A DNA stretch of 64,000 bases from an uncultured Pleurocapsa sp. (GTDB lineage: Bacteria; Chloroflexota; Anaerolineae; Aggregatilineales; Phototrophicaceae). The notes under the pieces are model-generated. The model ran no database searches. It saw only the letters and a list, made by a program, of their open reading frames with translations, and had not been told where the DNA came from. Positions 33,333 to 61,587 of the stretch are shown one piece after another. The stretch is from NCBI GenBank assembly GCA_964654755.1, contig CAZZJW010000003.1:19719-83718 (forward strand), given 5' to 3'. Every line of letters begins with the position of its first letter. Positions within the stretch are counted from its first letter, which is position 1. The position numbers and the translations under genes were made by a program.

Positions 33333-34376
33333 TCAGCCGACTGGATTGGCAAGCAGCGCGGCCAGCAGCGCCGTGCAGGCTTCCAGATCGGCGCTGTCGA
33401 CGGTCTCGCTGGTGGTATGCACATAGCGCGTCGGGATGGAGAGCGCGCCGCTGGCGACGCCGGCGCGGCTCGCCTGGATGCCGGCGGCGTCCGTCGTGCC
33501 CAACGTCAGCGTCTCGCGCTGGTACGGGATGCCGTCCGCTTCGGCGCGCGCGATCATCCAGTCGCGCACGGCTGGCGGCACGATCAGCCCGGTGTCCTGC
33601 AGCTTGATGGCCGCGCCCGCGCCCAGCCGGATCTCGTTGCGCTCGACGTTGACCAGATCGCCGGTGGACGTCACATCGATCGCGATCGCCAGGTCGGGCG
33701 CCACCTGGAAGGCCGCGGGCCGGGCCCCGCGCAGGCCGACTTCTTCCTGCACGGTGAACACCACGACGACTTCGTTCTGCACGCGCTTGTTCAGCCGGCG
33801 CAGCGCTTCGATCGCTACCACGCAGCCGACGCGGTCGTCCATCGCCTTGCCGATGATGCGGCTGCCCCGCTGGATCATCTCGCGGTCGAAGCAGGCGGCC
33901 ATGCCGGGCGTGATCCGCCCTTCGCCACCATCGCTGACGTCGATCCAGTATTCATCGAGCGCCGGGGCCGTCTGCCGCCCAGCGTGGAAGTAGTCGGGCA
34001 TGCACAGCGTGCCGATCGTGCCGTCCTCAAAGCGCACGCGCGCGCCCAGCAGCGCGGTGTGCATCAGTCCGCCGATCGGGGCGAAGCGCAGAAAGCCGGT
34101 CTTCTTCTCGACAAACGTCACCATCACGCCGATTTCGTCCATGTGCGCGGCGACCATGATGCGTTTGCCGCCGCTGCCCACGCGGCAGATCAGATTGCCG
34201 AGCGCGTCCACTTCCATGTGGTCGACGAACGGGGCGACACGGCGCTCGATCAGCCGGCGCACGCCGTGCTCAAAACCTGACGGACCCCACGCCTGCGAGA
34301 TCTCGCTCAGCGTGTCGATCAACGTTTCGCTATCCGGGCGCTTTTTCGTTGCGCCGCCTGCCGGTCGCTTCATCAT
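33333..34376 (-). CDS. M42 family metallo-aminopeptidase (FrvX/TET-like), paralogue 1
   Basis: AAHMDEIGVMV, GKAMDDRVG, FTVQEEVGLRGA, and C-terminal ...IPTRYVHTTSE. Confidence 0.85.
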   Translation of the reverse strand: MMKRPAGGATKKRPDSETLIDTLSEISQAWGPSGFEHGVRRLIERRVAPFVDHMEVDALGNLICRVGSGGKRIMVAAHMDEIGVMVTFVEKKTGFLRFAPIGGLMHTALLGARVRFEDGTIGTLCMPDYFHAGRQTAPALDEYWIDVSDGGEGRITPGMAACFDREMIQRGSRIIGKAMDDRVGCVVAIEALRRLNKRVQNEVVVVFTVQEEVGLRGARPAAFQVAPDLAIAIDVTSTGDLVNVERNEIRLGAGAAIKLQDTGLIVPPAVRDWMIARAEADGIPYQRETLTLGTTDAAGIQASRAGVASGALSIPTRYVHTTSETVDSADLEACTALLAALLANPVG

Positions 34377-34410
34377 CCATGTCCCATCGTGTGTTCAGGT
34401 TGTCGAGCAA

Positions 34411-35457
34411 TCAGCGTACGCGCACAGCCTCAGCCGTCAGCCGGGCCAGCGCAGCGCGCACAAGGCGCAGGGTATCGTCGTAATCCTGGCGCAGCAGCAG
34501 CGCCGCCGGGCTGTGGATGTAGCGGCAGGGCAGCGAGATCACCGCTGTGGGCGCGCCCGCCCCCGCCATGTGGATGGCGCCGCCATCCGTTCCGCCGCCG
34601 GGATTGGACTTGAACTGATGGCGAATGCCTTCTGCTTCCGCCGTCTCGCGCAGAAAGGCCACCAGCTGCGGCGGCACGATCAGGCTGGAGTCCATCAGCG
34701 AGATCACCGGCCCGCCGCCCATCCGGCAGGTGGGGTTGATCTCGCGTTCATCATCTGCCTGTGCGGTTGGATTGGGCAGATCGTTGGCGGTCGTGCCCTC
34801 CAGCACCAGCGCGACATCGGGCTGCAGCGTGTTCGCCGCCACATGTGCCCCGCGCAGGCCGATCTCCTCCTGCACGGTGAAGGCCGCCAGCACGTCCACC
34901 GGATAGGGCCCGCCCTGCAGCACGTCGATCAGCAGCGCGCAGCCCGCGCGATCGTCAAACGCCTTGCCGCGCAGCATGCGCCCGCCGTCCAGCTCGGTGA
35001 AGGTGCTGTCGAAGGCGATCCGCTCGCCGCGTTTGACCTTGCCCGCTGCCTCGTCCTTGCTGGTCGCGCCGATATCGATGCGCAGGCTGGAGATGCGGAC
35101 GGCGTTCTGGTCCTGATTCTTGTGGATCGGCGTCCATACGATCACGCCCGGCGTGCTGCCGATGCGCACGCGCTTGCCCGGCAGGATGCGGTCATCGATG
35201 CCGCCCACCGCCACAAAGCGGATCAGCCCGTCGCCCTCGAAGCCGGTCACCATCAGGCCGATCTCATCCATATGCGCCGCCAGCATCACGCGAAGCCGGC
35301 GTTCGCCGGTGCCGCGCTGCAGCGCCGTGATGCCGCCCAGCGCGTTGATGCGCACGTCGGTCACGTGCGGGCGGATGGCCCCCAGCACCAGTGCGCGAAC
35401 GGCGTCTTCCTGGCCGGATACGCCGACAGCATCGGAAAGCGTCTGGAGCATCTTCAT
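34411..35457 (-). CDS. M42 family metallo-aminopeptidase, paralogue 2
   Basis: AAHMDEIGLMV, GKAFDDRAG, FTVQEEIGLRGA, LPCRYIHSP. Confidence 0.85.
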   Translation of the reverse strand: MKMLQTLSDAVGVSGQEDAVRALVLGAIRPHVTDVRINALGGITALQRGTGERRLRVMLAAHMDEIGLMVTGFEGDGLIRFVAVGGIDDRILPGKRVRIGSTPGVIVWTPIHKNQDQNAVRISSLRIDIGATSKDEAAGKVKRGERIAFDSTFTELDGGRMLRGKAFDDRAGCALLIDVLQGGPYPVDVLAAFTVQEEIGLRGAHVAANTLQPDVALVLEGTTANDLPNPTAQADDEREINPTCRMGGGPVISLMDSSLIVPPQLVAFLRETAEAEGIRHQFKSNPGGGTDGGAIHMAGAGAPTAVISLPCRYIHSPAALLLRQDYDDTLRLVRAALARLTAEAVRVR

Positions 35458-36533
35458 GCGCTCGCCTCCTCGTAGGCAATCGACTGCATGAACTGGCCGT
35501 CCAACTCGCTGATGAACAGCGCCATCAGCCGGCCAGCCCGCTCAACATCGCGCAGGTCGATGGTCTCGACGGCGGAATGCATGCTGCGCAGCGGGATCTC
35601 GAGCAGCGCAGTTGGAACGCCTTCGCGGGCGATCTGGATGGACCAGGCATCGGTGCCGCTGCTGGCGGGGATCACATCGTCCTGCAGCCGGATCTCATGC
35701 CGCTTCGCGGTCTCGCGCAGGCGGTCGTACAGCTTCGGATGGAAGTTCGCGCCCAGGCCGATGCCCGGGCCGCCGCCCATCTCCAGCGCCTCGTCGGCAG
35801 AGACGCCGGATTGCGGCGCGAAGCACACGTCGAGCGCGATGGCGATGTCGGGCTGCAGGCGAAATGCCGAAGTGCGCGCGCCGAACAGCCCGGTCTCTTC
35901 CTGCACCGTCGCTACGGCGGCCACATCCCATGCGTGGTGCATGCCCTGCAGCGCGTGCAGGCAGGCGCTGACAGCGGCCACAGAGGCGCGGTCGTCCATC
36001 GCCTTGCCGGCCACCTTCGTGCCCAGCAGTTCGATCATCGGCGCATCCACGGTGATCAGATCGCCGATGCGCACCAGCTCGTGCACGCGCTCTGCCGGCA
36101 GGCCGACATCGATCAGCAGCTCGTCGAACGACGGGTAGCGCGCGCGCGCCGCCTGCGTCAGCAGGTGTGGCGGCCTGGCGGCAACGATGCCGGGCAGCAC
36201 TTCGCGGCCATGCACCAGCACGGTCTGCGCCATCAGCAGGCGATTGTCTGTGCCGGCCACGCGGTTGAAGCGGATGAAGCCTTCGCAGATGCCCGTCACC
36301 ATCATGCCGATTTCGTCCATGTGCGCGGCCAGCATGATGGTGCGCGGGGCGGGCAGCGGGCGCGTGGCACGGCGCAGGGCGATCAGGCTGCCCAGGCCGT
36401 CCTCGTGCAGCTCATCTGCACATGGCCCCCATTCCTCGCGCAGGATAGCGCGCAGCGGGCCTTCGTGGCCGCTGGGGGCGTGCGTCTCGGTCAGGCGGCG
36501 CAGATGCGCCTTGATGTCGAAGCTCAACAGCAC
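35454..36533 (-). CDS. M42 family metallo-aminopeptidase, paralogue 3
   Basis: AAHMDEIGMMV, GKAMDDRAS, ATVQEETGLFGA, IPLRSMHSAVE. Its stop overlaps the start of paralogue 2 (ATGA). Confidence 0.85.
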   Translation of the reverse strand: MLLSFDIKAHLRRLTETHAPSGHEGPLRAILREEWGPCADELHEDGLGSLIALRRATRPLPAPRTIMLAAHMDEIGMMVTGICEGFIRFNRVAGTDNRLLMAQTVLVHGREVLPGIVAARPPHLLTQAARARYPSFDELLIDVGLPAERVHELVRIGDLITVDAPMIELLGTKVAGKAMDDRASVAAVSACLHALQGMHHAWDVAAVATVQEETGLFGARTSAFRLQPDIAIALDVCFAPQSGVSADEALEMGGGPGIGLGANFHPKLYDRLRETAKRHEIRLQDDVIPASSGTDAWSIQIAREGVPTALLEIPLRSMHSAVETIDLRDVERAGRLMALFISELDGQFMQSIAYEEASA

Positions 36534-36554: not shown

Positions 36555-37148
36555 TCAGGGGCCGGGCGGCAGCACCGTTTCGGTCGGCGTGGCCGTCGGT
36601 GGGCAGCCGGTCGGCGGCGGCCCTGGCTGGCTTGGGCACAGATCGAGATTGTCGGCCACGCCGTCTCCGTCGCTGTCCGGCACCGGGATGGGCGTGGCGC
36701 TGGCGAAGACGAACGGCGTGTCGGTCGCGATCGGGATGGGCGATGGCGTCGCGCTGGGTGGCGGCGCGACAGTCGGCGGCAGGGTGAGCGTGGGCGCAGG
36801 CGTCGAGGTTGGGAAGATGAACGGCGTGGCCGTCGGGGGCGCCAGCGTCGGAAAGACCACGGTCGGAAAGACGATCGTCGGGAAGAACTGGCCGGGCGTG
36901 GGCAGCAGGCCGCCTCCGCCACCGGGCAGCGGTGTGATGCTGGGGAAGGCGATGCGCGTGGCGGTCGCCAGCGTGCGGGTGAGCGCGGGCTGGGTGGTTG
37001 CCAGCGGTGTGGGCGTGGCGCGGACGCTGGGGGCCGTCCCCAGCAGCACGAAGCCCGCGCAGTAGAACGGAAGCGTCGCCAGAATGATCAGAAACAGCAC
37101 GACCTGCAGGTTGCGCCGCCGCCGATCTGCGGGTGCTCCGGCTACCAT
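36555..37148 (-). CDS. membrane-anchored Pro/Thr-rich protein with thrombospondin-type-3-like motif
   Basis: One N-terminal TM segment (VVLFLIILATLPFYCAGFVLLG). Long P/T-rich repeats (FPTIVFPTVVFPT). DSDGDGVADNLDLCP near the C-terminus. Its start overlaps the elp3 stop by 7 nt. Confidence 0.6.
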   Translation of the reverse strand: MVAGAPADRRRRNLQVVLFLIILATLPFYCAGFVLLGTAPSVRATPTPLATTQPALTRTLATATRIAFPSITPLPGGGGGLLPTPGQFFPTIVFPTVVFPTLAPPTATPFIFPTSTPAPTLTLPPTVAPPPSATPSPIPIATDTPFVFASATPIPVPDSDGDGVADNLDLCPSQPGPPPTGCPPTATPTETVLPPGP

Positions 37149-39040
37149 TCCTTCTCCTCAGGCTGCTCCACGCGCGCGCTGAACATGTTACCACAAGCCG
37201 CCTGATCCGACGAACCCGCCAGCAGGCGGTGCTGATACAGCGCGCCGTCGCTGAATCCGCGCCGTCGGTAATAGGCGCGCGTGCCCACCGCGCTGATGAC
37301 GCTCAGCCGGGCGCAGCCGGCCTCCGCAGCCAGCAGCGCAGCATGCTCGATCAGGCGCGCACCCAGCCCGCTGTGCTGCGCCCGCCCCGGCTGGCTGCCG
37401 CCGATCTCGACCGCCTGCCCGTACACGTGCACCTCGCGGATGATCGCCGCCCCGGCCAGTTCGGCGCACAGCGGCGCGGCCTCCGGCGCGGGCAGGCGCA
37501 GGCGCAGAAAGGCAGCGATGCTGCGATCCGGCGCGATGAACTGCAGGAAGGCCTCGCGGCCGCCGGCTGCCTCGTACAGCGTGGTCTCCAGGCGTAGTTC
37601 ATCCATGTCCACCAGGCGAAAGCGTACCTCGCGGGCGCGGATGTCGGCGCTCTTCTCGCCGCGCGCTGCCAGCGCCTGCTCGACGAGCTGGCGGAAGTTG
37701 GTCGTGCGGTTGCCGTCGACGATATCGGTGCCGGGGATGTCGCGGATGACGCGCGTCAGGCGGCAGTACTCCGGTGTGCGGCGGAAGCACGCCATCAGCA
37801 GCTCGAGCAGCTCGTCGTGCGTGTAGGGCCGCCAGCGCCCTTCCTGATAAGGACGCATCAGTTCAGCGCTCTCGATCAGCGAACACGGATAGATCTTGAG
37901 CTCGTCGGGCCGGTAGGCGGGATCGGCGAACAGCCGGTCGTAATCGTCGCGGTCGCTGTCCGGCGTCGCGCCGTACAGATTGGGCATCCAGTGCGCGTGG
38001 ATCTTGAAGCCGGCAGCGCGCAGCAGGGCGACCGCCTCGCGGGTGGCCTGCGTGGTGTGTCCGCGCCGATTGAGGCGCAGGATGCGGTCGTCGAGGCTCT
38101 GAAAGCCGATCTGCACCTTGGTGGCGCCCAGCCGGCGCAGGCGCAGCGTCTCTTCCGCCGTCAGGTAGTCTGGCCGCGTTTCGATCACCAGCCCGACGCA
38201 GCGCACGGCGGCGGCCTCGTTCTCGCGGTGCGCGGCCTCCAGCTCCTGCCATGTGGCGAACTCGTCGGTCGGGCGGCGCGCGCCCCCCGCCGCAAGCAGC
38301 GCGGCCAGCCGGGCGGCCTGCTGGCGTTCGCTGGCGTACAGGCGCTGCACGGTCTGGTTGTAGCTCTCGTGCAGCGCCGCGCCCTGCAGCCGCACATTCG
38401 GCGCGGGCTGCGCCGGGTCGAAGGGCGACTGCTCGTGTATCGCCTGCCAGACTTCGGCGGAGCGGTCTTCGCCGCGCCCGAAATCGTGCAGCGCGTCAAA
38501 GGCGCGGCGCACGAACCAGATCTGATAGCTCTCCGGGTAGAACGACCACGTCCCGCCCAGGATGAGCAGCTCGATCTTGTCGGTGGGGTGGCCGGTGTTG
38601 AAGAAGGCGCGCAGGCGCGTCATGGTCTGGAGATAGGGGTCGAAGGCATTCTGCGCCGCCCGCTGCGCGCCGGGCTCATCGGAGAGGTAGCTCTTGGGCA
38701 TGCGCACGTCGTTGGGGCAGAAGATGCACTCGCCGGGGCAGGGATACGGCCGGGTGAGGATGGTGACCGGCGTCACGCCGCTGCTGGTGCGCACTGGTTT
38801 CATGCGCAGGCGCTCGATGACCGCCGGATCGAAGGGAGGCAGCGCTTCGCCGGCGAAGGCGCGGTAGGCGCGCAGCAGATCATCGCGGCTGAAGATGCGC
38901 CCGCCAGCCGTCCGCCCGGTCTGGCGCACCAGCCGGTCGAGGCGCTGGCCGGTGAGCGTGGCATCAGCCGCCACCGCCTGCAGGATGGTCAGCAGTGCTG
39001 CGCGGTGCTGTTCGAGGTCGAGGGCAGGGCGAAAGGTCAT
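37142..39040 (-). CDS. elp3: Elp3-family radical SAM/GNAT enzyme (tRNA wobble-uridine carboxymethylation type)
   Basis: Radical-SAM Cys triad CPGECIFCP. Elp3-like blocks ELLILGGTWSFYPESYQIWF, VGLVIETRPDYL, VQIGFQSLDDRILRLNRRGHT, DELKIYPCSLIESAEL, TRVIRDIPGTDIV. C-terminal GNAT (IIREVHVYGQAV, QHSGLGARLIEHAA, SVISAVGTRAYYRRRGF). Confidence 0.85.
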   Translation of the reverse strand: MTFRPALDLEQHRAALLTILQAVAADATLTGQRLDRLVRQTGRTAGGRIFSRDDLLRAYRAFAGEALPPFDPAVIERLRMKPVRTSSGVTPVTILTRPYPCPGECIFCPNDVRMPKSYLSDEPGAQRAAQNAFDPYLQTMTRLRAFFNTGHPTDKIELLILGGTWSFYPESYQIWFVRRAFDALHDFGRGEDRSAEVWQAIHEQSPFDPAQPAPNVRLQGAALHESYNQTVQRLYASERQQAARLAALLAAGGARRPTDEFATWQELEAAHRENEAAAVRCVGLVIETRPDYLTAEETLRLRRLGATKVQIGFQSLDDRILRLNRRGHTTQATREAVALLRAAGFKIHAHWMPNLYGATPDSDRDDYDRLFADPAYRPDELKIYPCSLIESAELMRPYQEGRWRPYTHDELLELLMACFRRTPEYCRLTRVIRDIPGTDIVDGNRTTNFRQLVEQALAARGEKSADIRAREVRFRLVDMDELRLETTLYEAAGGREAFLQFIAPDRSIAAFLRLRLPAPEAAPLCAELAGAAIIREVHVYGQAVEIGGSQPGRAQHSGLGARLIEHAALLAAEAGCARLSVISAVGTRAYYRRRGFSDGALYQHRLLAGSSDQAACGNMFSARVEQPEEKEW

Positions 39041-39164: not shown

Positions 39165-39416
39165 TCAGCCTTCCGGCGGCGGCACGGGCAGGTCGTCGAT
39201 GGCGACATCCTTGTACTTCGCGCCCTCTTCCACCAGCATCACCGGGATGCCGTTGCGGATGGGATATTTGTAGCCGGACTCTTTGCTGACCAGCCAACAT
39301 CCTCGCACCAGCTCCAGCCGGCCAGGGTCTGCGCCGCGGTCCTTCCAGTGCACGGCGACCGGGCAGCGCAGCAGTTCGAGCAGTGCCGGGTCAATCGCCG
39401 GGGTGGTTTCGCTCAT
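39165..39416 (-). CDS. Trm112-like small protein (UPF0434 type, partly Cys-less)
   Basis: 83 aa. LLELLRCPV...YKYPIRNGIPVMLVEE matches the Trm112 N- and C-terminal signature. Only part of the zinc-knuckle Cys set is present. Confidence 0.7.
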   Translation of the reverse strand: MSETTPAIDPALLELLRCPVAVHWKDRGADPGRLELVRGCWLVSKESGYKYPIRNGIPVMLVEEGAKYKDVAIDDLPVPPPEG

Positions 39417-39504: not shown

Positions 39505-40428
39505 TCAGCTGCTCTCCACGCCCCACAGCAGCAGGCGGTTGTCACCGGCGGCGCTGGCGAGGAACTGCCCGTCCTGCACGAAGGTGAGCGCCAGCACCGG
39601 ACGGGTGTGCCCGCTCAGGCTGGCCAGGGGCTGGCCGCTGGCCGCATCCCACAGCCGGATGACGCCGTCGCGCCCGCCGCTGGCCAGCACGTCTCCGGCG
39701 GGGGAGAACGCCACGGCATCGGCGCCGCCGTCGTGCGCAGTCAGGCGCTGTTGCAGCGTGAGCGCGTGTTCGTGCGCGTGAAGCAGCGCGATCTGCCCAT
39801 CGCGGAAGGCGACGGCAGCCTGCCCGCGCCTGCCCACCGCCAGATCGCGCGCCCAGATCGGCTGGTCGTCGCTGTCCTCGTGCGTCAGGAAGGCCACGCT
39901 GCTGGCCCGGCGCACATCCCACAGCCGCACCACGCCGTCCCAGCCGCACGAGAGCAGCCGGCCATCGTCCAGAAAGCCGACGCGCGCGATCTCGTCGCCG
40001 TGAAAGCCGAGGGTGCTGGGCGCGCCATTCCCGCCGAACAGCAGCAGCGCGCCGCTGCCACAGCCCGCCGCCACCCATGCGCCATCCGGGGACACCGCCA
40101 CGGCATTGACGGGCGACCCGGCGGCCCAGGTGTGGGTGAGCGTCAGCCCGGGCAAGCTGAGCCGGTAGACGAACGTGTCGCTGCTGCCGGCGGCCAGCCA
40201 ACTGCCATCGGGGGCGAAGGCCGCGCTCTTGACCGGGGCGCTGTGCGCGAAGCGGGCGTCCGGCGCGCCGCCGAATCCCCCGGTCCACAACCACACGCCC
40301 GCGCCACAGGCGGCGGCCAGCGCGCGCGCCGGGGCGCTGAAGGCGAGCTCGGTCGGCAGCGCGATCGCCGCTTCACCCAGCAGGGTGATCCGCGAGGCGG
40401 TGTGAGGGGTGATTGAAAGCAAGGCCAT
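39505..40428 (-). CDS. WD40-repeat beta-propeller protein
   Basis: Repeats ending in W-D/L-W (GRDGVIRLWDAASG, GWDGVVRLWDVRR, DNRLLLWGVES). ATG 40428 preferred over 40476. Confidence 0.8.
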   Translation of the reverse strand: MALLSITPHTASRITLLGEAAIALPTELAFSAPARALAAACGAGVWLWTGGFGGAPDARFAHSAPVKSAAFAPDGSWLAAGSSDTFVYRLSLPGLTLTHTWAAGSPVNAVAVSPDGAWVAAGCGSGALLLFGGNGAPSTLGFHGDEIARVGFLDDGRLLSCGWDGVVRLWDVRRASSVAFLTHEDSDDQPIWARDLAVGRRGQAAVAFRDGQIALLHAHEHALTLQQRLTAHDGGADAVAFSPAGDVLASGGRDGVIRLWDAASGQPLASLSGHTRPVLALTFVQDGQFLASAAGDNRLLLWGVESS

Positions 40429-40512
40429 AGCAAACTCTGATCTGATCGTAATCTGCGCGTGATATCGTTTTGTCACGTAGCCGGCTCAGGGCAGCGATGG
40501 AGGGCAATCACG

Positions 40513-55168: not shown

Positions 55169-55175
55169 CCGGCTG

Positions 55176-55246
55176 AGGCGACGACCAGATTCGAACTGGT
55201 GATCAGGCTTTTGCAGAGCCTTGCCTTACCTCTTGGCCACGTCGCC
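55176..55246 (-). tRNA. tRNA-Cys (anticodon GCA)
   Basis: Reverse complement: acceptor GGCGACG/CGTCGCC, short D-stem GCC/GGC, anticodon stem AGGCT/AGCCT with loop CT-GCA-AA, T-arm ACCAG-TTCGAAT-CTGGT, discriminator U. Confidence 0.95.
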
Positions 55247-56175: not shown

Positions 56176-57249
56176 GTGCATCTCGCGATTGACGCCAGCC
56201 GGACCACCAATGCCCACCCCACCGGGACCGAACGGTACGCGCTCGAAATGATCCGCGCGCTCATTCCACTCATCAATGGGCGGCTGACGCTGTACTTTCG
56301 CGATGTGCCGCCGCGTGGGCTGTTCCCCGACAGTGCTGAATGCAGGGTGCTGCACATGCCGCGCCTGTGGACGCACACGCGGCTGGCGCTGCAGGTGGCT
56401 CTCGACCGCCCGGACGTGCTGTGGGTGCCCGCGCATACCCTGCCATTCGCCTTTCCGGGCCGCGCCGCCGTGACCGTGCATGACCTGGGCTATCTGCACT
56501 TCCCGGATGCGCATCCGCCGCGCCAGCGCGCCTACCTCGACTGGACCACGCGCAGCAGCGCCCGCCGCGCGGCGATCGTGCTGGCGGACAGCAGGGCGAC
56601 GGCGACAGACCTGACTCGCGCCTATCGCATCCCCCCGGAGCGCATCCGCGTGGTGTACCCGGGCGTGAACGTGCCGCCGGTGCAGGATGTCCCGGCTGTC
56701 GCGCGGAAGCTGGGCCTGCCGGAGCGCTACTTCCTGTTTCTGGGCACGCTGCAGCCGCGCAAGAATATCGCCCGGTTGGTGCAGGCCTATCAGCGCTGGC
56801 AGGCGGAGCATCCCGGCGATCCGGCGGCGCTGGTGCTGGCGGGCCGGCGCGGCTGGCTGTATGACCCGGCCTGGACGGCGAATGTGCCCGGCGTGATAGA
56901 GCCTGGCTACGTTGCGGATGAGGACCGGGGCGCGCTGTACGCGGGGGCGCTTGCGCTGGTCTTCCCGTCGCTGTACGAGGGATTCGGCTTTCCTGTGCTG
57001 GAAGCGATGGGCTGCGAGACGCCCGTCATCGCCAGCGCGACGTCCAGCCTGCCGGAGCTGGCGGGCGATGCGGCGCTGCTGGTCAACCCGCTGGATGTCG
57101 AAGAGATCGCCTCGGCCATGGGCCGCCTGAGCGACCGGCCGGGGGAGCACGACCGGTTGGTACGCGCTGGCCTGCGTCAGGTGGAGAAGTTCACCTGGGC
57201 TGCGGCTGCCGAGGCTGCATGGGCGGCGCTGCAGGAGGCGGCGAGTTGA
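56176..57249 (+). CDS. glycosyltransferase family 4 (GT-B)
   Basis: LVFPSLYEGFGFPVLEAMGCETPVIAS motif. GTG 56176 lies 3 nt after the upstream stop. Confidence 0.85.
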   Translation: MHLAIDASRTTNAHPTGTERYALEMIRALIPLINGRLTLYFRDVPPRGLFPDSAECRVLHMPRLWTHTRLALQVALDRPDVLWVPAHTLPFAFPGRAAVTVHDLGYLHFPDAHPPRQRAYLDWTTRSSARRAAIVLADSRATATDLTRAYRIPPERIRVVYPGVNVPPVQDVPAVARKLGLPERYFLFLGTLQPRKNIARLVQAYQRWQAEHPGDPAALVLAGRRGWLYDPAWTANVPGVIEPGYVADEDRGALYAGALALVFPSLYEGFGFPVLEAMGCETPVIASATSSLPELAGDAALLVNPLDVEEIASAMGRLSDRPGEHDRLVRAGLRQVEKFTWAAAAEAAWAALQEAAS

Positions 57250-59090
57250 GTGTACAACGCATCCTGATCGTGCAGCTTGGAGATCTGGGCGATATGCTGC
57301 TCTCCACGCCGGCGCTGGCGGCGCTTCGCGAGGCGCTGCCGGGTGCGCGGCTGGACGTGCTGGCGGCTCCACACAACGAAGCGCTGCTGCGCGGCAGCGG
57401 GCTGGCTGATCGGTTGATCCCGCTGTCGCGGCGCGCGAGCCTGCGGCGCCCGGGCGGGCTGCTGGCGCTGGTGCGTGCGCTGCGCGCCGAACGATACGAC
57501 GTCGTGCTGTATCTGCATCATTTCACCACGCGGGCAGGCGCGCTGAAGTACGCGGCCATCGCCTGGGCGACCGGCGCTCCGGTCCGGCTGGGGCTGGAGA
57601 ATGGACACGGCTTCTTTCTGACCGAGCGGCTGCCGGACGAGGGCTTCGGCGCGCGGCACCAGGCGGAGTACTGGCTGGCGCTGACTGCCCGGCTTGGTGC
57701 AGACCCCCGCCCACGACCGATGCAGATCGCCATCGCGGCTGAGGACCGCGCCTGGGCGCAGCAGCAGCTGGCGGCGCTGCCGTCTGGCCCGCGCGTGGTG
57801 CTGCACCCCGGCAGCGGGGGCGACAGCCTGGCGCGGCGCTGGCCGGCGCAGGCGTTCGCCGATGCGGCAGCACTGCTGACGGCGCAGGGCGCGCAGCTGG
57901 TGTTGGTGGGCGGCCCGAATGATGACCTCGACGCGGTGCGCGCCGTCGCACAGGTTCCGCTGCTCGATCTGGGCGGGCAGACCACGCTTGGCCGGCTGGC
58001 GGCGGTGCTGGCGCAGGCCGACGCTTTCCTGGGCGCGGACAGCGGCGTGATGCACCTGGCGTGCGCGGTGCAAACGCCGACCGCCGCGATCTTCGGGCCG
58101 AGCAATGCGCGCGCCTGGGGGCCGTGGACGCCGCAGTCCCCGGCGCTGATCGTGCGGCGCGCGCCTGCATGCTCGCCGTGCAGCTATATTCGCCATACGA
58201 CCGGCCAGCGCGAGGGCTGCCCGGCGCGCACGTGCATGCATCTGGTCACGCCGGCGCGGGCTGCCGCGGCTGTGCAGTCGCTGCTGGCGGGTGCGGTGCT
58301 GCCGGGCGTTCCGGAAAGCACGCCACCTGGTGAAGGCGGGGTGGATGGCGTCGCGCACGTGACCGTGCTCGGGATGCCGGTGAGCGCGATCACCTACGCG
58401 CGGCTGCTGACGCTGATCGGGCGCTGGATACAGGAAGCACCGCATGGTCTGCGCCACATCTGCACGATCAACCCGGAGATGGTGATGATCGCCCGGCGCG
58501 ATGTCAACTTCGCCAACATCCTGCAGCGCGCGGCGGTGACCGTCCCGGATGGCGTTGGGCTGCTGTGGGCGGCTCGGCGGCTGGGGAAGCCGCTGCCGGA
58601 GCGTGTGACTGGCTCGGACGGCGTGCCGCTGATCGCGGAGCGGGCTGCCCGCCATGGCTGGCGCCTGTTCCTGCTGGGCGCAGCCCCCGGCGTGGCGGAT
58701 CGCGCCGCCGAGGTGCTGTGTGCGCGTTATCCCGGGCTTCGCATCGCCGGGGTGTACAGCGGCAGCCCGAAGCCGGAAGAGGAGGCCGAAATCGCCGAGC
58801 GCGTCAATCAGAGCGGCGCGGATGTGCTGTTCGTCGCCTTCGGCGCGCCGGAGCAGGACAAGTGGATTGCGCGCAACGCGCCGCGCCTGAATGTGACGAT
58901 GGCGATGGGTGTGGGCGGCACGTTCGACTTCATCGCCGGGGTGGTGCCGCGCGCGCCGCAGTGGATGCGCCGTGCAGGGCTGGAATGGCTGTACCGGCTG
59001 ATCCGCCAGCCCTGGCGGCTGCGCAGGATGCTGCGCCTGCCGCGCTTCGCGGCGCTGGTGATGCTGCACGGCGCAAAGGGAGCGGGCTGA
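57246..59090 (+). CDS. fusion glycosyltransferase: GT9 (heptosyltransferase-like) + GT26 (WecB/TagA/CpsF)
   Basis: N-terminal half: RILIVQLGDLGDMLLSTPALAALRE and ...GADSGVMHLACAV (GT9). C-terminal half: CTINPEMVM, VPDGVGLLWAAR, LLGAAPGVA, VAFGAPEQDKW, GVGGTFDF (GT26). Single uninterrupted frame. Start is TTG 57246 (TTGA overlap) or ATG 57219. Confidence 0.8.
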   Translation: MSVQRILIVQLGDLGDMLLSTPALAALREALPGARLDVLAAPHNEALLRGSGLADRLIPLSRRASLRRPGGLLALVRALRAERYDVVLYLHHFTTRAGALKYAAIAWATGAPVRLGLENGHGFFLTERLPDEGFGARHQAEYWLALTARLGADPRPRPMQIAIAAEDRAWAQQQLAALPSGPRVVLHPGSGGDSLARRWPAQAFADAAALLTAQGAQLVLVGGPNDDLDAVRAVAQVPLLDLGGQTTLGRLAAVLAQADAFLGADSGVMHLACAVQTPTAAIFGPSNARAWGPWTPQSPALIVRRAPACSPCSYIRHTTGQREGCPARTCMHLVTPARAAAAVQSLLAGAVLPGVPESTPPGEGGVDGVAHVTVLGMPVSAITYARLLTLIGRWIQEAPHGLRHICTINPEMVMIARRDVNFANILQRAAVTVPDGVGLLWAARRLGKPLPERVTGSDGVPLIAERAARHGWRLFLLGAAPGVADRAAEVLCARYPGLRIAGVYSGSPKPEEEAEIAERVNQSGADVLFVAFGAPEQDKWIARNAPRLNVTMAMGVGGTFDFIAGVVPRAPQWMRRAGLEWLYRLIRQPWRLRRMLRLPRFAALVMLHGAKGAG

Positions 59091-60073
59091 TGACGATGCT
59101 GGCCGGGCTGGTTGAGCACTTTCGCCGCCTGCGGGTGGTGGTGGTGGGCGATGTCATCCTTGACGAGTACCTGATCGGGCGCGCGGTGCGCCTCAGCCGT
59201 GAAGCGCCCGTGCCCGTGCTGGAGTTTGAGCAGCGCCAGCTCATCCCCGGCGGCGCGGCCAACCCGGCGGTCAACACCGCGGCGCTGGGCGCGCAGACCA
59301 CGCAGGTCGGGCTGATCGGCGCGGATGCCGAGGGCGAGGCGCTGGAGGAGGCGCTGCGCGGGCGCGGCGTCACGCCCCGGCTGATCGTCGATGGCGGGCG
59401 CGGCACGACGGTCAAGACGCGGGTGCTGGCGCATATGGGCCTGCGTTTTCCGCAGCAGGTGGCGCGGCTGGACCGGCTGTCTCGCGCGCCGCTGGACGAC
59501 GCGAGCAGCGCGGCGGTGGGGGCGGCGCTGGAGCAGGCAGGGCGTGGCGCGGATGTCGTGCTGTATTCCGACTATCAGCTCGGGCTGATCACGCCGGCGC
59601 TGGCTGCGCTGCCGTTCACCGGGCTGCGTGTGGCAGACTCGCAGGGCAGCTTCGAGAAGTACAGCGGCTTTGACGCGGTGAAGTGCAACGCAGATGAAGC
59701 CTCGGCCTGGCTGGGAGTGCGGCTGGAGGGCGATGCTGCGTTCGCCGGCGCGGCGCAGGCGCTGTTCGCGCAACTGAAGCTGCGGCGGTGCATGGTGATC
59801 ACGCGCGGGGCGGATGGCGCGACGGTCGCCGATGCCGGGGGCGCGGCGCACTGCCCGGCCCCGGCCACCAGCGAAGTGTACGATACCGTGGGCGCGGGCG
59901 ATACCGCCGTGGCGGTGCTGGCGCTGGCGCTGGCCGCGGGCGCGGTGCCCGCCGATGCCGTGCGTATGGCGAACGCGGCCAGCGGACTGGTGGTGCGCCG
60001 GGTGGGCAACTATGCACCCAGCGTGGATGAGCTCAGCGCGGCGCTGGCCGCTGCAGAATCCGATAGGCGTTGA
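59090..60073 (+). CDS. PfkB-family sugar kinase resembling HldE/RfaE domain I (heptose-7-phosphate kinase)
   Basis: RVVVVGDVILDEYLIGRAVRLSREAPVPVLE (RfaE-like N-terminus) and DTVGAGDT (PfkB signature). No adenylyltransferase domain. The ATG shares 1 nt with the upstream TGA. Confidence 0.75.
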   Translation: MTMLAGLVEHFRRLRVVVVGDVILDEYLIGRAVRLSREAPVPVLEFEQRQLIPGGAANPAVNTAALGAQTTQVGLIGADAEGEALEEALRGRGVTPRLIVDGGRGTTVKTRVLAHMGLRFPQQVARLDRLSRAPLDDASSAAVGAALEQAGRGADVVLYSDYQLGLITPALAALPFTGLRVADSQGSFEKYSGFDAVKCNADEASAWLGVRLEGDAAFAGAAQALFAQLKLRRCMVITRGADGATVADAGGAAHCPAPATSEVYDTVGAGDTAVAVLALALAAGAVPADAVRMANAASGLVVRRVGNYAPSVDELSAALAAAESDRR

Positions 60074-60749
60074 CCGCGCCCGAAAAGCCGTCTGCGCGGT
60101 AGGCGCGCAGCATGTTCAGCCCGGTCGCCGCGCACAGCGCCTCGATCTCCGCATCGTCGGCATGGTGGCAGTAGCGCAGCGCATGCGTCCCTGCGCGCCA
60201 GTCCAGCAGCGCGTCTCCCGGCTCAGGCGTCATGTCTGCGGGGAAGGGGACCATGCGCTGGCGGAAGCGCTCGTACTCGCCGAAGCGCCAGCAGGCGAAG
60301 CACAGCAGGCCTCCGGGCGCGACGCAGGCCGCCGCCCGCTCCATGAGCGCGAGGCGCCGCTGCAGGCCGGGGATGTGATGCAGCAGGCCGAACAGCGCGA
60401 CCAGGCCGAAGGTGCGGCTGGGCAGCGGGGCGCTGAGCACATCGGCCTGCTGCAGCGTGAGCGACAGGCCGGGCAGGCTGGCGCAGCGTTCGCGCGCATG
60501 GGCCAGCAGGCCAGCATCCGAGTCGATGCCGTGGAAAGTCAGCTCGCCACCCAGCGCGGGATGCAGAAAGCGCGCCAGTCGGCCGTTGCCGCAGCCGATA
60601 TCGAGCACGCTCAGCGGCGGGTGCAGCAGGGGCAGCAGGCCGGACCAGCCCGGCCACGGCTGACCGCGCGTGGCATCGAAGGCCTCGCCGGCGCTGCGGT
60701 AGAATGCCTGATTGAGCGCGTTCAGACGCGCCGCTGTTTCATCGTCCAT
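60033..60749 (-). CDS. class I SAM-dependent methyltransferase, Trm9/ALKBH8-MT-like
   Basis: SAM motif I VLDIGCGNG. Trm9-like blocks FDATRGQPWP (compare HFSxTRxxPWP), LLHHI...RR, CFACW, LRYCHHADDAEIEALC (compare RYYHxFxxGEL). The 3' end overlaps the convergent kinase gene by 41 nt. Confidence 0.7.
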   Translation of the reverse strand: MDDETAARLNALNQAFYRSAGEAFDATRGQPWPGWSGLLPLLHPPLSVLDIGCGNGRLARFLHPALGGELTFHGIDSDAGLLAHARERCASLPGLSLTLQQADVLSAPLPSRTFGLVALFGLLHHIPGLQRRLALMERAAACVAPGGLLCFACWRFGEYERFRQRMVPFPADMTPEPGDALLDWRAGTHALRYCHHADDAEIEALCAATGLNMLRAYRADGFSGAVNAYRILQRPAPR

Positions 60750-60762
60750 CCGGGAGCCGGGC

Positions 60763-61587
60763 ATGATGCAGTTCGCCATCAACTATTCACCGCAGGCCGC
60801 CGCGCTGCTGCAGCGTGGAGAGATTGTAATCGACCGCTTCAAGTGCCCCAACTGGGACTGGCTGATCGCAGAGGCGCGCCAGTTCCTGCAGGTGTACGTG
60901 CACTTCGATCTGATCGCCGGCAACGGCTCGGTGCGGCAGTGCGACTGGGCGGCGGTGGAACGCCAGCTTGCGCAGACCGGGACGCATTACGTCAATTTGC
61001 ACCCGGACGTGCGCCTGCGCGATTTCGGCTTCAGCGCACAGCCGGAGCGCCGTGCGGAGATCGAGCGCGTGGCCGAGCAGGTGCTGGCAGACCTCGCCTG
61101 GGTGTCTGCGCGGGTGGGCGCGGAGCGCGTGCTGCTGGAGAATCTGCCGTTTCGCGAGAACGCGCGCAACCCTGCCGCCAGTATGGTGCGCGCGCTGAGC
61201 GACCCGGCAGAGCTGAGTCGCATCATCAGCGCGGCGCGGGTGGGCCTGCTGCTCGACCTGTCGCACGCGGCCCTCAGCGCGCCAGCGTTTGGGCTGAGTG
61301 AGGACGCCTACATCGATGCGCTGCCGCTGGCACGGGTGGGCGAGGTGCATGTCACCGGCATCGGCCTGGTGGAGGGCGAACGGCGCGATCACCTGCCGAT
61401 GACTGCGCCGGACTGGACGCGCTTCGCGGGCTTCATCCAGCGCCTGCGCGCCGGGGCGATGGGGCGCCCAGCGATCGTCGCCTTCGAGTACGGCGGTGTG
61501 GGCGAGAAGTTCGCCTGGCGCAGCGACTCAGAAGTCATCCGCCGGGATGGGCAAAAGTTGTATTACGGAGTTCACAGCGCGCTATAA
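60763..61587 (+). CDS. DUF692/MbnB-like TIM-barrel protein (multinuclear non-haem iron oxidase, MNIO family)
   Basis: 274 aa. The ordered candidate metal ligands match the MbnB pattern recalled from memory: H47 (YVHFD), H80 (NLHPD), E126 (LLENLP), D165/H168 (LLDLSHA), H196 (EVHVTG), D209/H210 (RRDHLPM), E242 (AFEYGG). The N-terminus MQFAINYS...IDRFK resembles MQIGFNFT...IDYVE of MbnB. Confidence 0.6.
   Translation: MMQFAINYSPQAAALLQRGEIVIDRFKCPNWDWLIAEARQFLQVYVHFDLIAGNGSVRQCDWAAVERQLAQTGTHYVNLHPDVRLRDFGFSAQPERRAEIERVAEQVLADLAWVSARVGAERVLLENLPFRENARNPAASMVRALSDPAELSRIISAARVGLLLDLSHAALSAPAFGLSEDAYIDALPLARVGEVHVTGIGLVEGERRDHLPMTAPDWTRFAGFIQRLRAGAMGRPAIVAFEYGGVGEKFAWRSDSEVIRRDGQKLYYGVHSAL

Follow-up and report, generated by a model that had tools for sequence, protein, structure and literature searches.

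A gene encoding a putative Trm9-type tRNA methyltransferase was found in a bacterial genome, within a 64,000-nucleotide stretch of contig CAZZJW010000003.1 (positions 19,719 to 83,718; the entire stretch is called the window below). The window also contains a gene for Elp3, a radical S-adenosylmethionine (SAM) and acetyltransferase protein that forms 5-carboxymethyluridine at tRNA position 34 (cm5U34), and a small Trm112-like gene (Table 1). The methyltransferase is probably a bacterial orthologue of Trm9 that is paired with Elp3, and it is predicted from its sequence to produce the methyl ester mcm5U34. This role, the completion of mcm5U, is the most likely one because the active-site residues of Trm9 are kept and because the gene stands head-to-head with elp3 in many bacteria. 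The protein has a methyltransferase fold and the active-site constellation of Trm9, Trm9 is its best relative of solved structure, and the head-to-head pair with elp3 is widespread. We infer its substrate, cm5U34, and its product, mcm5U34. The strongest evidence for the Trm9-like assignment is the gene context.

Similarity to Trm9

A profile of the family (alignment A1, 32 homologues with 52-89% identity to the window protein) was compared with 177,635 sequences from PDB. The first match was Trm9 of Yarrowia lipolytica (5cm2_Z; 45.5 bits, E 4.8e-11), aligned with profile positions 26-215. The next four aligned matches score at most 41.8 bits and cover only the Rossmann core, at about positions 41-153. 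Trm9 is the sole near-full-length match among the five shown as alignments, and nearly all other listed matches are restricted to the core. The sequence used for Saccharomyces cerevisiae Trm9 was validated against 5cm2_Z (E 4.5e-71), and its numbering agrees with the mutants described in PMC4678810. Comparison of the A1 profile with this sequence by hhalign gave a probability of 98.2% and an E-value of 4e-14 over 187 aligned columns.

The reverse search led to the same family. Yeast and Yarrowia Trm9 were used as queries against 44,743 six-frame open reading frames (ORFs) from 240 bacterial loci and the window. All 116 ORFs of the family were recovered, with the best E-value 4.6e-13. Approximately the first 100 ranks are occupied solely by the family, and all other methyltransferases from these loci rank behind them. 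The similarity to Trm9, as seen in sequence profiles, is well above chance. The Trm9-type assignment made in the initial annotation is supported both by the rank of Trm9 as the top match among solved structures when the family profile is used and by the coupling with Elp3 described below. Automatic annotation at JGI names 14 of 120 listed relatives "tRNA (uracil-5-)-methyltransferase TRM9"; the NCBI label for relatives is "class I SAM-dependent methyltransferase". When the family profile was compared with a representative library, the top 150 matches were all bacterial-type single-domain proteins, with no bridge to eukaryotic or archaeal Trm9.

The initial annotation had recognized the protein by a series of short blocks. 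All of the strings that it quoted, VLDIGCGNG, FDATRGQPWP, LLHHI, RR, GG, CFACW, LLDW and LRYCHHADDAEIEALC, are present in the methyltransferase. One of the proposed pairings has to be corrected: LLDW is not the counterpart of the Trm9 VPW block, as both hhalign and MAFFT align VPW with MVPF at residues 166-169 (family consensus IVPW). The coordinates given for the gene agree with the start selected here by alignment with 31 homologues. The longest ORF, 60033..60782 on the minus strand, has 249 codons for amino acids and opens with TTG, and the start supported by the alignment is the ATG at 60749, which yields the N-terminus MDDETAARLN. The GC content at third codon positions (GC3) is 0.86, as in a coding region.

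Active-site residues

Ten residues of yeast Trm9 were mapped on the window protein following the structural and mutational analysis of Létoquart et al. (PMC4678810), using hhalign and a MAFFT alignment of ten bacterial members and two fungal Trm9 proteins. Y18, R29, D72, H115, H116, W145, R241 and N271 are conserved as Y17, R28, D76, H124, H125, W154, R192 and N227, respectively. W168 corresponds to F169, the position being Trp in most family members, and Y243 corresponds to C194. In total, nine of the ten residues are retained or conservatively replaced. The H115/H116 dyad, W145, R241 and N271 are needed for activity or tRNA binding of yeast Trm9, as shown by mutagenesis (PMC4678810).

Conservation within the family follows the same pattern. 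VLDIGCGNG, with the GxGxG of motif I, and D76, the acidic residue that ends strand 2, are invariant in the 32-sequence alignment, and H124, H125, W154, R192 and N227 are invariant in both alignments A1 and A2. The N-terminal block of Trm9 is also present: R28-x3-W32-P33 aligns with R29-x3-W33-P34 of S. cerevisiae, R28 and W32 being invariant in the ten bacterial and two fungal sequences. R29, H115, H116, W145, R241 and N271 all have identical counterparts here, and the protein thus retains every residue for which a role in holding the cm5U carboxylate or the uracil ring was proposed.

The following reaction can be suggested. Elp3 would form cm5U34, and the Trm9-like methyltransferase would then use SAM to esterify its carboxylate, giving mcm5U34. 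A role in positioning the carboxylate was proposed for R29 and the second histidine of the dyad in Trm9 (PMC4678810), and by analogy Arg28 and His125 may have this role here. His124, Trp154, Arg192 and Asn227 are the candidates for holding the uridine.

Pairing with Elp3

The Elp3 gene reported in the initial annotation is genuine, as its product passes the TIGR01211 cut-off in an alignment that extends over both the radical SAM part and the C-terminal acetyltransferase part. Pfam detects the Radical_SAM and Radical_SAM_C domains, and the string CPGECIFC is the CxxxCxxC cluster motif. Acetyltransf_1 was not detected by Pfam at E 1e-3. The window Elp3 is 62-68% identical to the Elp3 proteins whose genes adjoin the methyltransferase in other genomes.

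Relatives of the methyltransferase were collected from one genome per GTDB species. This produced at least 517 loci, and the best 80, almost all from Anaerolineae, were studied. Of the 80 loci, 40 have an elp3 gene at a distance of up to 10 kb; four are not long enough for a decision. Among the 76 informative loci, 33 have the two genes head-to-head, with the start codons mostly 35-65 nt apart. When Elp3 was taken as the starting point, 68 loci were informative, and in 31 of these the methyltransferase is found upstream of elp3 at a distance of no more than 10 kb. Where the genes are not adjacent, both are still present in at least 12 assemblies, being more distant from each other or located on other contigs. 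The next most common neighbour is found in 24 loci only and is unrelated to tRNA. The recurrent neighbours, judged by eye from their sequences to be MutY-like, YedY-like, lipoate-protein-ligase-like and LCP-like, reflect local synteny of one subclade.

The family is large, with 1,706 clusters at 50% identity in an exhaustive profile search (E <= 1e-30). Seven distant members were considered, with 38-46% identity where it was measured. Six of them are head-to-head with a gene for an Elp3 of 583-605 amino acids, and the flanking genes around these six pairs are completely different. The neighbour was identified as Elp3 by phmmer in four cases (639-729 bits) and by Pfam domains in two. Among the Elp3 homologues from distant loci, three show Acetyltransf_1 as a weak or faint match, and it is not listed for the others. 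One of the six paired members belongs to a cluster that contains a protein from a metagenome-assembled genome (MAG) of Myxococcota, and another is encoded on an 8.1-Mb contig.

Extended synteny was considered as the cause of the pairing and rejected, given the lower frequency of other neighbours and the persistence of the pair when all flanks are changed. Since the pair is kept with unrelated flanks across lineages, it is not a relic of a shared chromosomal region. Pairing maintained in this way is a classic signature of functional coupling, and the coupling with Elp3 for which the initial annotation suggested a phylogenetic check is indeed observed, both in the 33 head-to-head loci and in the six distant members.

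Two side observations concern these loci. Firstly, a second class I methyltransferase of approximately 305 amino acids adjoins the Trm9-like gene in several related genomes (Table 1); it matches the generic Methyltransf_11/25 domains and, weakly, CMAS. Secondly, four loci (L010, L021, L061, L105) come from MAGs labelled Pleurocapsa, a cyanobacterium. They are syntenic with the Anaerolineae methyltransferase and Elp3 genes, at 56-66% identity to these, and this suggests that these MAGs are mis-binned or mislabelled.

Alternative functions

A number of observations weigh against the Trm9 assignment. In a PDB search with the single sequence, Trm9 appears at E 0.95, after many generic methyltransferases, and in the profile search its lead over the next match is 3.7 bits. 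In about half of the methyltransferase loci (36 of 80), elp3 is not found at a distance of up to 10 kb. Both genes of the window are intact and lie 21 kb from each other. The pair is split in this genome, and the head-to-head place is held by another gene, encoding a distant relative of MNIO/DUF692 or xylose-isomerase-like TIM-barrel proteins; about 13 nt separate its start codon from that of the methyltransferase. Finally, we know of no report of mcm5U in bacterial tRNA. The remaining adverse observations are of two kinds, and each of them suggests a different function.

The first group is compatible with an ordinary class I methyltransferase that modifies a small molecule, peptide or protein and acts with the MNIO-like or heptose genes, the likeness to Trm9 being noise at the family level. 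Pfam returns only five generic methyltransferase domains, including Methyltransf_25, Methyltransf_12 and Methyltransf_11 (E 2e-17 to 2e-13), and no Trm9-specific model was returned by either Pfam or NCBIfam. The weak NCBIfam matches are to CpaM (the best one, 36 bits with a cut-off of 180), UbiE (30.6 bits, cut-off 216) and methyltransferases of ribosomally synthesized and post-translationally modified peptides. The AlphaFold 2 model (pLDDT 90.9) has the Rossmann-type strand order, and in Foldseek its top matches are natural-product methyltransferases, with Trm9 at rank 11 among near-equal class I enzymes. The close divergent MNIO-like gene is not confined to the window, as its arrangement with the RfaE-like gene around the methyltransferase recurs in loci L010, L013, L014 and L021.

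However, this recurrence is limited to four of 80 loci, compared with 40 of 80 for Elp3, and the MNIO-like gene was therefore rejected as a general functional partner. Neither library contains a curated Trm9 model, and thus the curated libraries are not decisive; all 25 listed NCBIfam matches are 5- to 15-fold under their cut-offs. With these scores, and with Trm9 as the top PDB match, the protein does not group with UbiE/SmtA-type methyltransferases; it is such a grouping that the initial annotation had named as fatal to its proposal. Class I methyltransferases score alike in Foldseek, and so the fold comparison does not discriminate between them. Moreover, the likeness to Trm9 is specific in the blocks that lie beyond the Rossmann core, and the pairing with Elp3 persists across phyla with unrelated flanks. 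A function of this ordinary kind is thus very improbable.

The second group would fit an enzyme that is coupled to Elp3 but catalyses a different reaction, acting on another Elp3-dependent intermediate, another atom of U34 or another tRNA position, so that the product is not mcm5U. The RYYH block of Trm9 is RYCH here, and the cysteine replacing Tyr243, Cys194, is invariant both in the 32-sequence alignment and in the ten bacterial members aligned with fungal Trm9. In yeast, the Y243A mutant of Trm9 is strongly impaired (PMC4678810). An insertion of six residues precedes the conserved asparagine, the region between W154 and R192 is unlike that of fungal Trm9, and identity to the fungal proteins is only about 25%. 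On the other hand, conservation of the entire set of proposed carboxylate and uracil ligands is hard to square with a different substrate. We consider this possibility unlikely, although less so than that of an ordinary methyltransferase, and retain the assignment to Trm9.

The Trm112-like protein

In eukaryotes and archaea Trm9 is partnered by Trm112, which acts as its activating subunit in eukaryotes and Haloferax, and the initial annotation had pointed to a Trm112-like gene in the window. This ORF was picked up by a motif scan and the listing of ORFs, and it proved to be real. It scores 21.2 bits with the Pfam model Trm112p (PF03966), which falls slightly short of the gathering score of 22 (E 2.9e-4). 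Phmmer against PDB gives 2PK7 (4.9e-5), 2KPI (1.5e-4), 2JNY (2.4e-3) and 2JS4 (0.03), of which 2KPI and 2JS4 are cited as bacterial Trm112 orthologues in the Trm112 literature (PMC6144793, PMC5372719). Judging from these matches, the 83-residue protein is very probably a member of the Trm112/UPF0434 family (COG2835). It is highly conserved in Anaerolineae: identity in the scan reaches 79%, and the copies in eight Elp3 loci score 120-155 bits. Its relatives merge gradually into the generic Trm112/YcaR proteins found in many phyla.

By eukaryotic and archaeal precedent, a partnership of this protein with the Trm9-like enzyme is plausible. A stronger version, in which it is an obligate activating subunit and the three eukaryote-type components act together, can be proposed only tentatively. 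It is consistent with membership in the family, with the position directly upstream of elp3 in the window, and with the occurrence of a Trm112-like gene within 10 kb of elp3 in eight of 80 Elp3 loci (L081, L082, L092, L120, L125, L126, L151, L160). In addition, bacterial Trm112 proteins have structures that would allow a methyltransferase to bind (PMC6144793, PMC5372719).

However, in all eight loci the gene is some 7-9 kb downstream of elp3 and on the opposite strand. No Trm112-like ORF was found near the methyltransferase in the 80 methyltransferase loci. Among 80 loci centred on Trm112-like genes, elp3 is nearby in one and the methyltransferase in none, and no methyltransferase is a conserved neighbour. 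The sole recurrent neighbour is a large NTPase/ATPase-like gene (approximately 850 codons), downstream in 12 of these loci. Relatives of the protein are also frequent in phyla for which Elp3 was not demonstrated in this analysis, for example in Sphingomonas and Acidobacteriota. Lastly, the protein has only two cysteines, C18 and C40, and thus no Cys4 zinc site. The Haloferax Trm112 also has no zinc site and still binds methyltransferases (PMC6144793).

The location directly upstream of elp3 is specific to the lineage of the window, where a local rearrangement may have brought the two genes together. Since this adjacency is peculiar to the window, we treat the role of activator as a possibility. 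The gene directly upstream of the Trm112-like one encodes a WD40-repeat protein. The same order, WD40 and then Trm112-like, is seen in L092 and L160 and is not seen in most other Trm112-like loci. WD40 partners are used by eukaryotic tRNA methyltransferases and by Elongator, but this neighbour may equally be a coincidence.

Comparison with known systems

The likeness to Trm9 of S. cerevisiae and Y. lipolytica (5CM2) and to the methyltransferase domain of ALKBH8 (EC 2.1.1.229) extends from the class I SAM fold to the N-terminal TR..PWP block with the catalytic arginine, the HH dyad after strand 4, the tryptophan after strand 5, the RY.H block, the terminal asparagine and the functional pairing with Elp3. 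Apart from the substituted tyrosine and the six extra residues before the conserved asparagine, the window protein differs from Trm9 in that it has no long Lys/Glu-rich insertion of the yeast type. Unlike ALKBH8, it has neither RRM nor AlkB domains, and its host is bacterial. The archaeal Trm9 candidates, HVO_1032 of Haloferax and a Sulfolobus protein, were compared by description only (PMC6144793, PMC5372719); they likewise combine a stand-alone Trm9 with a stand-alone Elp3. In Sulfolobus, the Elp3 and Trm9 genes cluster (PMC6144793).

Elp3 has been recorded in "numerous bacteria" (PMC13315578). Structural and biochemical studies of DmcElp3 from Dehalococcoides mccartyi identified it as a tRNA modification enzyme that hydrolyses acetyl-CoA in a tRNA-dependent manner (PMC6367351). 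The window Elp3 is, similarly, a stand-alone bacterial protein from the same phylum and would supply the upstream step; it differs from DmcElp3 in its N-terminal and internal extensions (632 residues in total). No downstream methyltransferase is discussed for bacterial Elp3 in PMC6367351 or PMC13315578. The Trm112-like ORF resembles the bacterial Trm112 orthologues YcaR/UPF0434 (2KPI, 2JS4, 2PK7) in its matches to the structures and to the Trm112p model and differs from them in its greater length, due to a C-terminal tail, and in having two cysteines only.

A bacterial enzyme with related chemistry is CmoM (SmtA) of E. coli, a class I methyltransferase that methyl-esterifies the carboxyl group of a modified wobble uridine, converting cmo5U34 into mcmo5U34. 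In contrast to the pathway considered here, the cmo5U pathway of CmoM does not involve Elp3. No protein of the CmoM type is among the 60 best-scoring PDB matches obtained with the family profile; CmoA (4GEK, 4IWN) scores approximately 30 bits.

Implications

According to a 2017 review, the Trm112-dependent methyltransferases have a narrow distribution in archaea, similar genes had not been detected in bacteria, and the function of bacterial Trm112 was unknown (PMC5372719). mcm5U34 and the Trm9-Trm112 complex are regarded as eukaryotic, with limited archaeal occurrence. No description of a bacterial Trm9 was found in the literature searched, the name TRM9 already being used for some members in the JGI automatic annotation. 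A widely conserved bacterial Elp3-Trm9 gene pair has apparently not been reported. The enzyme class itself is already known, and what is added is its bacterial membership.

The data suggest that the Elp3-Trm9 pair is conserved in hundreds of bacterial species, and they lead to the prediction that mcm5U34 occurs in bacteria. This has a bearing on the spread of the Elp3 pathway between domains. Cultivable Chloroflexota could provide simple two-protein systems for studies of the Elongator pathway. The bacterial Trm112 gains a concrete and testable candidate partner, and a large family now labelled at NCBI only by its methyltransferase class could be better annotated.

A broader scheme is a widespread bacterial Elp3-Trm9 module (Anaerolineae, at least one lineage of Myxococcota and unplaced lineages) that installs mcm5U34, possibly replacing MnmE/MnmG, with Trm112 (YcaR/UPF0434) as its activating subunit. 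We regard this scheme as doubtful; if it were true, the module would provide the first defined partner for the bacterial Trm112 family.

Genomic setting

The window is a high-GC (approximately 67%) stretch of an ordinary bacterial chromosome. Other genes in it encode Lon, SerRS, LysRS, Lgt, RNase Y, histidine kinases and glycosyltransferases, and the nearest relatives of the window genes are found in MAGs of Anaerolineae (Chloroflexota). The features discussed are listed in Table 1.

Table 1. Positions of genes and other features in the window and, in the last five lines, in related loci
Feature	Position	Strand	Remarks
Trm9-like class I SAM-dependent methyltransferase	60033..60749	-	238 aa; predicted cm5U34 -> mcm5U34 methyl-ester-forming enzyme
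Elp3	37142..39040	-	632 aa; TIGR01211 459.8 bits (cut-off 350), model positions 51-517 of 522
Trm112/UPF0434 (YcaR)-type small protein	39165..39416	-	83 aa; 124 nt upstream of elp3, same strand; candidate methyltransferase partner
WD40-repeat protein	39505..40476	-	Directly upstream of the Trm112-like gene
Three M42 glutamyl-aminopeptidase genes	33333..36533	-	Tandem paralogues, downstream of elp3
Pro/Thr-rich ORF	36555..37148		197 aa; between the M42 genes and elp3; weak thrombospondin type 3 repeat match
MNIO/DUF692- or xylose-isomerase-like TIM-barrel protein, distant	60763..61587	+	Pfam MbnB_TglH_ChrH 27.4 bits; NCBIfam ApyH 43 bits (cut-off 400)
RfaE-domain-I-like heptose-7-phosphate kinase	about 59090..60073	+	248 bits, under the cut-off of 345
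Fused family-9 heptosyltransferase and WecG/TagA-type glycosyltransferase	57219..59090	+	One ORF, directly before the RfaE-like gene
ORF of 373 codons	55055..56173	+	Coding-like GC3; no Pfam or NCBIfam match
tRNA-Cys(GCA)	55175..55246	-	Overlapped by the 373-codon ORF
Second methyltransferase, L006	10746..11663
Second methyltransferase, L125	7673..8590
Second methyltransferase, L126	3996..4844
Second methyltransferase, L127	4641..5561
Second methyltransferase, L120	7453..8280

The MNIO-like gene occupies the position held by elp3 in other genomes, and the RfaE-like heptose kinase gene converges on the 3' end of the methyltransferase gene. A scan for promoters and terminators around the methyltransferase gene found none. 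In a tRNA scan of the window no genes for tRNAs with U34 were detected, the only ones being Pro-CGG, Arg-CCT and Cys-GCA. Since the 373-codon ORF overlaps the Cys-GCA gene on the opposite strand, either its true start is further downstream or the ORF is spurious. The heptose pathway suggested by the RfaE-like and heptosyltransferase genes is unexpected here, as this lineage of Chloroflexota is usually regarded as having no lipopolysaccharide.

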